Source of the DNA: Patescibacteria group bacterium
Lineage (GTDB): Bacteria > Patescibacteriota > JAQUNI01
Assembly: GCA_028717685.1 (NCBI GenBank)
Contig: JAQUNI010000001.1
Location: forward strand, 335,451-399,450
DNA: 64,000 bases
Reading direction: 5' to 3'
Part shown: piece by piece, positions 36,573 through 39,197 of the stretch
How positions within the stretch are numbered: the first letter of the stretch is position 1
Layout of the letters: every line of letters starts with the position of its first letter
The notes under the pieces: generated by a model
Told to the model about the DNA's origin: nothing
What the model saw: only the letters and a program-made list of their open reading frames with translations
The model's database searches: none
Translations under genes and position numbers: made by a program

Positions 36573-37544
36573 GTTTCAATTTAAAATTAAAAATGAAAAA
36601 TTAAAAATTCAAACTTTATTATTCTTGTCATTAAACGAAGTATACTTTTAAGGACAAATTAATCTTTATGGAGATTGCTTCGTCGTCCGCTTTAGGGCGT
36701 CCTCCTCGCAATGACGAATACAATAAAATAACAATGCAATAATGAAGCAATGAAACAATAAAAATTATTTCATTAAAAATTGAATAAAAAATTAAAAATT
36801 AAGAATTAAAAATTCTTTATACTATTATACAAAAAAAGACCCTTAAAAACAAGGTTCTTTTTTTATCCGCAAAGGAGTTTTCCTTTGGCAATTAAACAGT
36901 GATAGGAAACATCTTAAGATTTAAAACACATTTTGTTTAAAACGCCGTGTTTTAAGCTGGCCACTACCGTGTGGCTTTTTGGCGTTTGTTTGATAACAGT
37001 ATCCCTCGCGGGATACCGCGACAATATTTTTCTCCCTAGAAAGGAGGTGATCCATCGACAGCTTCCGCTACCGATGCCTTGTTACGACTTCGTCCTAATT
37101 ACCGATCCTACCGTGGATCCACCAAAAGGCGGAACTTCGGGTATTACCGGCTCTTCTGACGTGACGGGCGGTGAGTACAAGACCTGGGAACGTATTCACC
37201 GCGACATGGCTGATTCGCGGTTACTAGCGATTCCGGCTTCATGAGGTCGAGTTGCAGACCTCAATCCGAACTGGGGGTGCTTTTGATGGGATTAGCTATA
37301 GCGTTACCGCGTCGCGTCCCATTGTTACACCCATTGTAGCACGTGTGTCGCCCAGGGCATCAAAGGCCATGCTGACTTGACGTCGTCCCCACCTTCCTCC
37401 GACTATATGCCGGCAGTCTCGCGTGACAATAGTAACACGCGACAGGGGTTGCGTTCATTCCCGGACTTAACCGAACATCTCACGACATGAACTGACGACA
37501 GCCATGCAGCACCTGATCCCAAGGTTCCCCCCACAAGAGATCCA

Positions 37545-37712
37545 AATTCCAAACACTAAGCACCAAATTACAAACAATATCCAATAATCAAAGTTCCAAT
37601 GACCAAAACAGATTTGGAATTTTGAAAATTGAAATTTAGAATTTATTTGTCTGGCTATGCCAGATCTCGCTAGAAGCGAGAAAATTTGTGATTTGCGATT
37701 TGGGATTTCTAT
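37545..37712 (-). other. Insertion/expansion in the 16S V6 region (about 170 nt, AT-rich with internal palindromes).
   Basis: Lies between the conserved AACCTTACC and GGTGCTGCATGG. Contains the ATCTCGCTAGAAGCGAGAT and TCTGGCTATGCCAGA palindromes. Confidence 0.65.
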
Positions 37713-38291
37713 CTTGAATCCCTTATGGGGGCACATCTTAGTTTCCTAAGATCTCCTTGAGCGTCTTGCCCTGGTAAGGTTCCTCGCTTACCGTCGAATT
37801 AAACCACATGCTCCACCGCTTGTGCAGGTCCCCGTCTATTCCTTTGAGTTTTAGCCTTGCGGCCGTACTTCCCAGGCGGGACACTTAACGCGTTAGCTTA
37901 CGACACTGAAGGGGTCGAGCCTCCAATGCCTAGTGTCCATCGTTTACAGCGTGGACTACTGGGATATCTAACCCCATTCGCTCCCCACGCTTTCGTCCTA
38001 TGAGCGTCAGAATCGTTCTAGTAAGCTGCCTTCGCTATTGGTGTTCCTGCCGATATTAACGCATATCACTACTACACCGGCAGTTCCGCTTACTTCTCCC
38101 GACCTCTAGTCTTGAAAGTATCCGACCCTTTCCCTTGGTTAAGCCAAGGTCTTTAAGGTTAGACTTTTCAGACCGCCTAGGGACGCTTTACGCCCAATAA
38201 ATCCGGATAACGCTTGGACCACTCGAATTACCGCGACTGCTGGCACGAGTTTAGTCGGTCCTTATTCGTAGGGTACACTCAACCGCACCTC

Positions 38292-38458
38292 GCTGGGCTC
38301 GGTGGCGGTAATTCCTAATTTCTAATTTTTAATTTCTAATCAAATCCCAATGACCAAATGACCAATGACCAAACTTTAGACATTAGACATTTAGACATTA
38401 GAAATTGATTAGAAATTAGGTCAATTAGGAATTAGAAATTCCGAACCGAACGCAGTGA
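38292..38458 (-). other. IVS-like insertion in the 16S V3 region, with conserved GC-clamp termini.
   Basis: Lies between GGGGAACAAACCGTACCTCACTGCGTTCGG and CCGAGCCCAGCGAGGTGCGGTTGAGTG. AT-rich hairpin core. Confidence 0.65.
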
Positions 38459-38845
38459 GGTACGGTTTGTTCCCCTATAAAAGCAGTTTACACTGAAGAA
38501 CAGCTTCTTCCTGCACGCGGCGTCGCTCCTTCACCCTATTTCGGGCATTGAGGAAGATTCTCGACTGCAGCCTCCCGTAGGAGTCAGGGCAGTGTTTCAG
38601 TCCCCGTGTGCGAGGGCATCCTCTTAGACCTCGTAACCGTCATAGCCTTGGTGAGCCTTTACCCCACCAACTAGCTGATAGTCCGCAGGCCCTTCCTGAA
38701 GCGATAAATCATTTACCATAACTAATGAATAGCTATGGCACATCGGGAATTAGTCCGCCTTTCGGCGAATTATGCCCGTCTTCAGGGTAGGTTACCAACG
38801 TGTTACTCACCCGTTTGCCACTGGCCGCACCTCGCTACGCTCGGG

Positions 38846-38998
38846 CGGAATTTACCAATTTTCAATTTTCAATTTTCAATCAATTTTCAATTTTCAAACA
38901 TTACCGCAACTTAATCTGTTTGAAAATTAAATCATTAATTTATTTGATATTGATTGAAAAATTCGAAAATTTGTAAATTGAAAATTCCGTGCCAAACA
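38846..38998 (-). other. IVS-like insertion in the 16S V1 region with termini similar to the V3 insertion.
   Basis: 5' end GCCTCACTGTGTTTGGCACGGAATTT and 3' end AATTCCGCCCGAGCGTAGCGAGGTGCGG, compared with ACCTCACTGCGTTCGGTTCGGAATTT / AATTACCGCCACCGAGCCCAGCGAGGTGCGG in V3. Confidence 0.65.
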
Positions 38999-39197
38999 CA
39001 GTGAGGCACGGCCCGTTGACTTGCATGCCTTATCCACGCCGCCAGCGTTCATCCTGAGCTAGGATCAAACTCTCAAAAAAGATAATCAGCAATTAACTCA
39101 TAAAAGCTAGATCACTGATTATATAAATAGACGTTCCTATCACTATTTAATTGTCAAGGTTCAAAAATATTTTTGCTCTTGAACTAGAGCATAATTT

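Follow-up and report, generated by a model that had tools for sequence, protein, structure and literature searches.

A clamp-bounded hairpin family at helix tips of 16S and 23S rRNA genes of Patescibacteria, present twice in one 16S rRNA gene

The stretch of DNA analysed here, hereafter the window, comprises 64 kb of contig JAQUNI010000001.1 from a Patescibacteria (Candidate Phyla Radiation, CPR) bacterium, and contains a single 16S rRNA gene that is interrupted by three large insertions, two of which begin and end in the same conserved, mutually complementary termini (referred to below as the clamp). The bacterial 16S rRNA covariance model RF00177 matches the gene from end to end (model positions 1-1533, 1329.8 bits), for a gene length of 2041 nt. 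A first-pass annotation had described a 16S rRNA gene of approximately 2.04 kb with insertions in V1, V3 and V6, which the covariance-model alignment confirmed; the location given for it also held, with the end corrected from 39079 to 39080 and the gene assigned to the minus strand. All three insertions were found to lie at helix tips. The V1 insertion puts 170 nt where helix 6 would otherwise end in a 3-nt loop, that in V3 substitutes 175 nt for 9 model positions of helix 17, and that in V6 substitutes 200 nt for 3 model positions in the hairpin equivalent to Escherichia coli ~1025-1036. The insert size of 150-170 nt proposed initially was too small for V6. Coordinates of these and other features of the window are collected in Table 1.

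The V1 and V3 inserts are alignable over their entire length (score z = 26), and share clamps of 30 nt at the 5' and 3' ends, which enclose AT-rich hairpins with heptamer periodicity. The sequence CCTCACTGNGTTNGGNNCGGAATTT occurs exactly twice in the window (38982-39006 and 38436-38460, minus strand), against 0.00 occurrences expected from shuffles, and GAGCNNAGCGAGGTGCGG is found exactly at 38825-38842 and 38283-38300 on the same strand. The common termini noticed in the first pass are therefore real, and the accompanying claim, that the same element occupies two rRNA sites, was borne out by the full-length alignment and extended by the finding of the clamp at about a dozen helix tips, as described below. 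Each of the two elements folds into one hairpin, at -66.8 kcal/mol for V1 (z -8.5 versus dinucleotide shuffles) and -95.8 kcal/mol for V3 (z -15.5), with interiors of 20% and 27% G+C, respectively, and clamps of 53-68%. In the V1 element the two clamps form a duplex with each other that includes a conserved A.C mismatch and G.U wobbles, and the 5' clamp can also form a local hairpin of its own, CCGUGCC[UCACUGUGUUU]GGCACGG. Profile hidden Markov models (HMMs) of the two clamps, used in place of a whole-element covariance model because the interior varies from approximately 0 to approximately 190 nt, detected no further clamp copies in the window. A 1-mismatch match to the 3' clamp at 33843-33860 was rejected as a chance occurrence in ordinary sequence with no hairpin.

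The V6 insertion is also a single long AT-rich hairpin (z -6.0 versus dinucleotide shuffles), with different ends and without the conserved clamp. Its common ground with the V3 insert is limited to AT-rich repeat motifs and the motif GGTCATTGG, and it contains two GC hairpins, CUCGC-UUCU-AGCGAG and CUGGC-AUA-GCCAG. Small GC-stem modules of this kind, with 5-6-bp stems and 3-4-nt loops (CUCGC-N3-4-GCGAG, CUGGC-N3-GCCAG and AUCCC-GCGA-GGGAU), recur in the V6 insert (37640-37680), the downstream spacer (36505-36535), the 16S trailer (37006-37030) and the V3 insert of a close relative (contig L003, below), where they sit nested in AT-rich inserts and spacers, and are present also in half-elements of other CPR contigs.

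Members of the clamp family were sought with the 5' clamp (20 specified bases) in one genome per species, i.e. 185,579 species and 596 Gb, and independently with the 3'-clamp pattern over Joint Genome Institute (JGI) metagenome contigs. The 5'-clamp scan returned 22 genome loci, against approximately one chance match expected, and all 22 lie inside 16S or 23S rRNA genes, nearly every one with the cognate 3' clamp 54-250 nt downstream. The metagenome-assembled genomes (MAGs) concerned are labelled Parcubacteria, Yanofsky-, Nealson-, Sacchari-, Peri- or Levyibacteria, Microgenomates, or plain Patescibacteria. Three further labels, Bathyarchaeia, Pacearchaeota and Gammaproteobacteria (L013, L014 and L009), belong to MAGs in which the match sits in a gene scoring as bacterial large subunit (LSU) rRNA, full-length at 2531 bits in L013 and partial in L014 and L009, and these rRNA contigs are probably mis-binned. 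One Saccharibacteria-labelled MAG, L029, carries two clamp elements in its 23S rRNA gene. The 3'-clamp scan gave 100 matches, of which 86 are in an rRNA context, three are half-elements at two loci, and 11 with no rRNA nearby, in DNA of 59-76% G+C, were discarded as chance. Both scans pooled yielded 86 unique complete elements of 54-248 nt (median 150 nt). The search for further clamp copies suggested in the first pass thus found them in public genomes and metagenomes, with none elsewhere in the window.

About a dozen helix tips across 16S and 23S rRNA are used by the elements, in many CPR lineages. The sites in 16S (E. coli numbering) are ~75-92 (h6) and ~460-472 (h17), i.e. those of the window's own two copies, with a few elements in the leader or spacer, while those in 23S are ~282, ~547 (H25, nine unique elements), ~1174 (H45, eight unique elements), ~1480-1510, ~1717-1741 (H63), ~1871, ~2209, ~2798 and a few others. 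Every one of the 85 elements whose flanks could be mapped reads in the rRNA sense, with no antisense copy (p = 5e-26). There was no complete clamp element outside rRNA genes in the 185,579 species genomes or the JGI metagenomes, and viral contigs, considered as a possible vector, gave no match to either clamp. The family is confined to rRNA genes and is always in sense orientation.

Two further observations concern the edges of the family. Half-elements, consisting of the 3' arm of an AT-rich interior and an intact 3' clamp but no 5' clamp, are present in non-rRNA intergenic DNA of low-GC contigs (L110 2100-2260, identical in L090, and L062 ~11790-11900), and in L110 the clamp stops 3 nt upstream of a tRNA gene; these may be recombination debris, or the clamp may have been reused as a tRNA 5'-processing signal. 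Diverged clamp subfamilies, such as GCUCCUCAYUGCAUUCGUC / GACGAACGCAGYGAGGAGYG and UCGYUCC...GGAGCGA, were located at L015 1038-1172 and 1460-1575, in the V1 insert of L003 and at the ~1717 site of L086, and in these some of the G.U pairs of the main family are Watson-Crick pairs. An apparent 532-nt element in L015, possibly bearing an open reading frame (ORF), was resolved into two separate short elements of the variant subfamily. The existence of diverged subfamilies indicates that the family is larger than exact-pattern scans reveal.

Each element takes the place of the terminal loop of a variable rRNA helix, and is closed by a consensus duplex of approximately 25-30 bp formed by 5' CCGYRCCUCACUGYGUUYGGNNCGGAAUUU and AAAUUCCGCCCGAGCRUAGCGAGGUGCGG 3'. 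In an ungapped alignment of 28 clamps (A3), the extended duplex was 92.6% paired, a level reached by none of 500 shuffles and compared with 35-48% in slid controls. Compensatory changes are found in the outer five base pairs and in the host-helix flanks, while the inner ~15 bp is near-invariant in sequence and includes an A.C mismatch that never varies (CCUC-A-CUG opposite CAG-C-GAGG), G.U and U.G wobble pairs that are nearly fixed, and a 2x1 internal loop 10 bp from the mismatch. Across 43 distinct clamp haplotypes, positions c10 and c67 are paired in 41. Further, the sense strand of the clamp RNA was more stable than the antisense strand in 84 of 86 elements (p = 1e-15), which is the signature expected of wobble pairs selected in RNA. 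The clamp elements are under pairing selection at the RNA level.

The 5' clamp is in addition an internal palindrome, CCGNNCC[UCACUGYGUUY]GGNNCGG, the stem of which covaries in its own right: c10-c26 is Watson-Crick in 36 of the 43 haplotypes, with A-T, G-C and T-A types all represented (permutation p < 0.0005). The extended form of the clamp is approximately 19 kcal/mol more stable than the local 5' hairpin, and the latter is accordingly read as a transient co-transcriptional state, in which the GC-rich 5' clamp would be sequestered until its partner has been made. A role of the palindrome at the DNA level, as the site of a dimeric protein, is also conceivable.

The interiors, by comparison, average 23% G+C and show a 7-nt periodicity (autocorrelation 0.50 at lag 7), and vary from almost nothing to ~190 nt in length even at one site, the smallest elements being little more than the clamp and a short closing loop. 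Most intergenic regions of the window are likewise occupied by AT-rich tandem repeats of period 7 (AATTTTT, TAATTTC and similar). The presence of the same kind of heptamer repeat in intergenic DNA suggests that the insert interior is produced by slippage acting genome-wide and is not peculiar to rRNA; the repeats themselves could reflect slippage bias, DNA curvature or promoter architecture.

To follow the inserts in a close relative, its 16S rRNA gene was obtained via contigs encoding TrmD homologs. This gene (L002, L003 and L006) is an identical 2065 nt in three independent JGI metagenomes, and is 95.7% identical to that of the window outside the inserts. The relative also carries V1, V3 and V6 inserts, but those at orthologous sites are only 40-55% identical to the window's. 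Across sites, the window V1 element and the V3 element of L003 are ~90% identical over a length that takes in the clamp, and the window V1 element is also ~90% identical to the interior of the V6 insert of L003, which is without the clamp; further, the V3 element of L003 holds nested small GC hairpins resembling part of the window V6 insert. These matches place the same sequence in three 16S helices of two close relatives. Across the family, copies belonging to one genome are more alike than copies that share a site in different genomes. Interiors at different sites of the same contig have a median identity of 0.62 compared with 0.45 across contigs (Mann-Whitney p = 0.0013), and several such same-contig pairs are 87-100% identical, e.g. 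H25/H63, H45/~1480 and H63/~1871. In the near-identical pairs the identity begins exactly at CCG and stops exactly at CGG. There was no target-site duplication, the flanks of near-identical copies being complementary strands of the host stem and not direct repeats. The simplest explanation for spread from one helix tip to another is gene conversion through identical 30-bp clamps.

A number of established identities were considered for the inserts. There was no group I intron match (RF00028) within 37040-39080 at the gathering threshold or at E<=10, although the same model detects a tRNA-Phe intron elsewhere in the window, and no Rfam match to a group II intron, the inserts being only 183-200 nt. 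Other Rfam families, ribozymes included, gave only sub-threshold scores to generic long-hairpin miRNA precursors (E <= 10). No homing-endonuclease ORF (LAGLIDADG, GIY-YIG or 23S_rRNA_IVP) and no Pfam domain at E<=0.1 was present; an 89-aa ORF across V6 and the other overlapping ORFs are spurious and run into conserved rRNA. The first-pass view that these are neither group I/II introns nor carriers of a homing endonuclease is supported by both results. Two candidate sources of the clamp were also rejected. A derivation from 23S helix 42, with which it has CUCACUG...UCGG in common, gave an alignment score equal to the shuffle mean. A likeness to the pre-16S processing stem (UCACUGU/AUAGUGA) was seen only in the window and L003 and not in nine other CPR rRNA genes, and is treated as coincidence or at best lineage-specific.

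The reading favoured here, with a probability of roughly 0.6, is that the V1 and V3 inserts belong, as two copies, to one family of ORF-less hairpins that extends across the CPR and is restricted to rRNA genes, the clamp of which is a putative processing site for a double-stranded RNA (dsRNA) endonuclease. Members of the family are stem-loops with complementary termini that replace the loop of a variable helix, and they recur at H25 and H45, which are classical sites of RNase III-processed intervening sequences (IVSs) (PMC4990558, PMC11270868). In the Coxiella IVS, the terminal stem of 28 bp contains one mismatch and one bulge and is cut by RNase III in mid-stem, and the remaining stem possibly holds the rRNA fragments together (PMC4990558). 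The H25/H45 sites, the stem with one mismatch and one bulge as in Coxiella, the strict sense orientation and the greater stability of the sense RNA together favour processing. Transcripts are reported to lack CPR rRNA insertions as a general class, according to two papers that cite Brown et al. 2015 for it (PMC11270868, PMC9297842). On the question of whether the inserts are processed IVSs or permanent expansion segments, which the first-pass annotation had posed, we infer that the evidence leans towards the former.

A possible sequence of events is as follows. The element would be transcribed within the pre-rRNA, and its 5' clamp would first fold as a local hairpin. The 3' clamp would then displace this hairpin, and the extended duplex that results is much the more stable of the two. 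An endonuclease specific for dsRNA (RNase III, perhaps a Mini-III-like enzyme) would recognise the invariant inner clamp and cut inside it, the AT-rich hairpin would be discarded, and the outer covarying 5-7 bp would keep the rRNA fragments together, such that the outcome would be classical IVS behaviour and not that of a spliced intron. Over evolutionary time, copies may be exchanged or re-seeded among the helix tips of one genome, most simply by gene conversion, while the interior would lengthen and shorten by heptamer slippage. The V6 insert is on this account a clamp-less relative of the element interior.

The degree of clamp conservation exceeds what an E. coli-type RNase III would need, which makes a more sequence-selective enzyme possible. 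Bacillus subtilis Mini-III prefers ACCU, and NCCU/AGGN is invariant in the clamp, a likeness that is speculative. A more far-reaching version, tentative and on balance doubtful, is that the clamp is recognised by an rRNA-processing system dedicated to this purpose and specific to the CPR, in which a nuclease of Mini-III-like or some other specialised type, for instance, reads the invariant CCUCACUG/YAGCGAGG duplex with the A.C mismatch, that the elements are an active rRNA-specific mobile family, and that the two-state clamp is a co-transcriptional folding switch. Were this so, the switch would let a selfish hairpin occupy any rRNA helix tip while leaving ribosome assembly intact.

Several points weigh against the processing-site interpretation. 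At the four well-populated sites the median pairwise identity is 0.80-0.87 for the clamp, which thus equals or exceeds the rRNA flanks (0.66-0.80) in conservation, and 0.36-0.54 for the interior. The clamp value is inflated, since members were found by exact clamp matches, although the clamp half unused in each search is conserved as well. Excision, cleavage position and enzyme are all things that we infer, and a signature search found no RNase III gene in the window. A perfect AT-rich duplex is an RNase III substrate without any clamp, such that the conservation may instead serve protein binding or recognition at the DNA level, and neither an extended duplex nor a simple RNase III model needs the local 5' hairpin to covary. 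The V6 insert, having no clamp, must also be tolerated or removed. Finally, neither a target-site duplication nor an autonomous partner was seen that would account for the first colonisation of a helix tip.

Alternatively, the inserts could be permanent expansion segments, i.e. hairpins that stay on the ribosome as surface 'tentacles', with the clamp as a structural junction or as the site of a CPR-specific ribosomal or assembly protein. All of the sites are tips of variable helices exposed at the surface, where other lineages have expansion segments, and conservation in sequence as well as in pairing would suit recognition by a protein. The elements are, moreover, strictly in sense orientation and under RNA-level selection, and the alternative fold (a cruciform or four-way junction) covaries. 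This explanation nevertheless appears rather unlikely given how fast the interiors evolve, from ~0 to ~190 nt even at one site, and that they are near-perfect AU-rich duplexes of 40-90 bp and thus ideal RNase III substrates; H25 and H45 are, moreover, sites of known IVSs of the cleavage type (PMC4990558), and the transcript reports cited above speak for removal. A somewhat less probable alternative is that the elements are selfish DNA resembling miniature inverted-repeat transposable elements (MITEs), the clamps being terminal inverted repeats, each an internal palindrome of 25 bp, for a trans-acting transposase, recombinase or homodimeric endonuclease, and the hairpin RNA a tolerated by-product. 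Imperfect inverted termini of ~30 nt are present in all members, near-identical copies occur at different sites of one genome, movement among V1, V3 and V6 is apparent in close relatives, rare half-copies lie in non-rRNA intergenic DNA, and the covarying palindrome CCGNNCC-N11-GGNNCGG at the 5' end would fit a dimeric DNA-binding protein. Dispersal in both orientations was, however, not found, as complete copies are restricted to rRNA genes, none of 85 is antisense and the wobble asymmetry favours the sense RNA. There was also no target-site duplication and no match in viral contigs, a search for an ORF-bearing partner with the same ends, which was not exhaustive, found none, and gene conversion through the clamps explains the similarity within genomes without a transposase.

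It is highly unlikely that the elements are true introns of a new protein-dependent kind, in which an endonuclease would recognise the clamp and the rRNA halves would be re-ligated as in archaeal bulge-helix-bulge introns. CPR rRNA insertions are described in the literature as removed and are often called introns (PMC9297842, PMC11270868), and the sequence conservation of the clamp resembles that of a dedicated recognition site. The elements lie, however, at helix tips and not in conserved cores, and if the unit from CCG to CGG were excised exactly and the ends joined, the host stem would have no loop left, which speaks against splicing. Bulge-helix-bulge geometry is absent, with one A.C mismatch and one 2x1 loop lying 10 bp apart, no match to intron or ribozyme families was found, and the members at H25 and H45 sit where known elements are cut without ligation (PMC4990558). 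An assembly artefact, or ordinary lineage-specific length variation without shared termini, the outcome against which the first-pass annotation had set its own proposal, has a vanishingly small probability. Metagenomic rRNA genes are prone to chimeric assembly and AT-rich repeats are common in this genome, but the 2065-nt gene of the relative was recovered identically from three independent metagenomes, more than 100 contigs of many projects have the clamp in the same rRNA contexts, and the shared terminal motifs occur twice in the window where none are expected.

Table 1. Features of the 16S rRNA locus and of the rest of the 64-kb window (window coordinates)
Feature	Position	Strand	Length	Basis
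16S rRNA gene with three helix-tip insertions	37040..39080	-		RF00177 full-length match, 1329.8 bits
V1 clamp-hairpin element, helix 6, E. coli ~74-93, CCGUGCC...GGUGCGG	38825..39011	-	187 nt	
V1 element 5' clamp (CCGTGCCTCACTGTGTTTGGCACGGAATTT)	38982..39011	-		motif search, clamp profile HMM
V1 element 3' clamp (AAATTCCGCCCGAGCGTAGCGAGGTGCGG)	38825..38853	-		motif search, clamp profile HMM
V3 clamp-hairpin element, helix 17, E. coli ~459-474	38283..38465	-	183 nt	
V3 element 5' clamp (CCGTACCTCACTGCGTTCGGTTCGGAATTT)	38436..38465	-		motif search, clamp profile HMM
V3 element 3' clamp (AATTACCGCCACCGAGCCCAGCGAGGTGCGG), variant with 2-nt indel	38283..38313	-		motif search
V6 insertion, tip of hairpin at E. 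coli ~1025-1036	37529..37728	-	200 nt	covariance-model alignment
Pre-16S processing stem, leader strand; pairs with 36885-36908	39134..39157	-		inverted repeat I4
Pre-16S processing stem, trailer strand	36885..36908	-		inverted repeat I4
tRNA-Phe(GAA), exon 1	28163-28132	-		
tRNA-Phe(GAA), intron	28131-27883	-		
tRNA-Phe(GAA), exon 2	27882-~27843	-		
Period-7 repeat examples	90-208, 1021-1103, 3113-3135, 21295-21351, 28264-28314, 32873-33028, 36578-36613			
Period-7 repeat examples, continued	36772-36814, 40427-40532, 46168-46300, 48847-48976, 59528-59616, 62946-62994			

The genes near the 16S rRNA gene include those for TrmD, a KH-domain protein, a LysM-M23 peptidase and trigger factor, and the best named homologs of the neighbouring TrmD are from Patescibacteria/Moranbacteria, which places the host in the Patescibacteria. 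The 16S rRNA gene is bracketed by an inverted repeat (24 nt, 92% complementary) that is the expected pre-16S processing stem, and is followed on its 3' side by a spacer of ~570 nt, tRNA-Ala(UGC) and a peptidase S51 gene (36395-37040; 35700-36326). No 23S rRNA gene lies behind it, and there is no LSU rRNA anywhere in the window. Within the spacer between 16S and tRNA-Ala, a 36-nt stretch on the minus strand (36537-36572, GGGCCTGTAGCTCAGTTGGCTAGAGCGCCACATTTG) resembles the 5' half of a tRNA (acceptor and D arm, Ile/Ala-like) with no recognisable anticodon or T arm downstream, and is succeeded by small hairpins with GC stems, CCCGC-UAC-GCGGG and CUCGC-AAA-GCGAG; the stretch could be a tRNA gene that is truncated or oddly interrupted. 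Elsewhere in the window, tRNA-Phe(GAA) (27843-28163, minus strand) carries a group I intron of 249 nt between positions 33 and 34, to which RF00028 gives 88.4 bits (model match 27892-28141), and is detected by ARAGORN only once the intron has been taken out. A tRNA-Phe intron at this position has been reported from one Patescibacteria genome (PMC13011429).

The CPR accounts for a large share of bacterial diversity and is notorious for insertions in its rRNA genes, and many of the abundant short ORF-less insertions among these can now be assigned to a single family that has a conserved ~30-bp duplex at its base. The clamp element offers a concrete, testable substrate for the study of ribosome maturation and rRNA fragmentation in the CPR, and its signature can be used to annotate or mask inserts in 16S and 23S surveys and in primer design. 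The family is also a clean natural system in which to follow how a hairpin is copied from one structural RNA helix to another while selection acts on the RNA.

That CPR rRNA genes carry insertions is well known, and those of intron type have already been characterised (PMC11270868). In the same survey, the latest systematic one, short ORF-less insertions that are not introns are termed 'uncharacterized', some of them being perhaps RNase III IVSs at 23IS2 and 23IS4. The clamp elements are like these 'uncharacterized' insertions (Brown et al. 2015; Tsurumaki et al. 2024, PMC11270868) in occurring in the same organisms and genes, in their size class (<200-250 bp), and in having no intron model and no ORF. 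Unlike the account given here, the portions available describe no shared sequence, structure or family (PMC11270868). The clamp strings were not found in the literature searched, and the clamp-bounded hairpin family is apparently undescribed.

Two other kinds of element invite comparison. The Correia/nemis elements of Neisseria and the Rickettsia palindromic elements are miniature palindromic repeats that are transcribed and cut by RNase III or tolerated inside genes. The clamp elements are similarly short, ORF-less and multicopy, have terminal inverted repeats, give a hairpin RNA that is a plausible RNase III substrate, and are tolerated within essential genes of reduced genomes. They differ in being without target-site duplication, restricted to rRNA operons in one orientation, and conserved across phylum-level lineages. 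In insects, the 28S 'gap' or hidden-break region is an AU-rich hairpin that is excised to leave the rRNA fragmented. The expansion segments of eukaryotes and Asgard archaea occupy the same kinds of surface helix tips as the clamp elements and likewise grow by slippage of simple repeats, but have no conserved, site-independent basal sequence and no identical copies across helices.

The closest parallel is with RNase III-processed IVSs, which are known in 23S helices 9, 25 and 45 of Salmonella, Yersinia, Leptospira, Campylobacter, Coxiella and Alphaproteobacteria. IVSs in 16S are rarer, with examples in V1 of Clostridium paradoxum, in Helicobacter canis and in Caedibacter. As in these systems, the clamp element is an extended stem-loop in place of the loop of a variable helix, H25 and H45 are among the sites used, and the distribution is patchy with signs of transfer or copying. 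The complementary termini form a stem of ~25-30 bp with one mismatch and one bulge, similar to that of the Coxiella IVS (PMC4990558). Unlike many classical IVSs, which carry a 23S_rRNA_IVP/S23p ORF, the clamp elements are ORF-less, and their AT-rich interior of heptamer repeats and covarying alternative 5' hairpin also set them apart, as does RNase III excision being a putative step here. A further difference is that one conserved clamp is found at about a dozen 16S and 23S sites over many CPR lineages. What is new with respect to known IVSs is the reuse of a single basal duplex in both rRNAs, the strict sense orientation, the two-state 5' clamp, and the evidence for an exchange of copies between sites.

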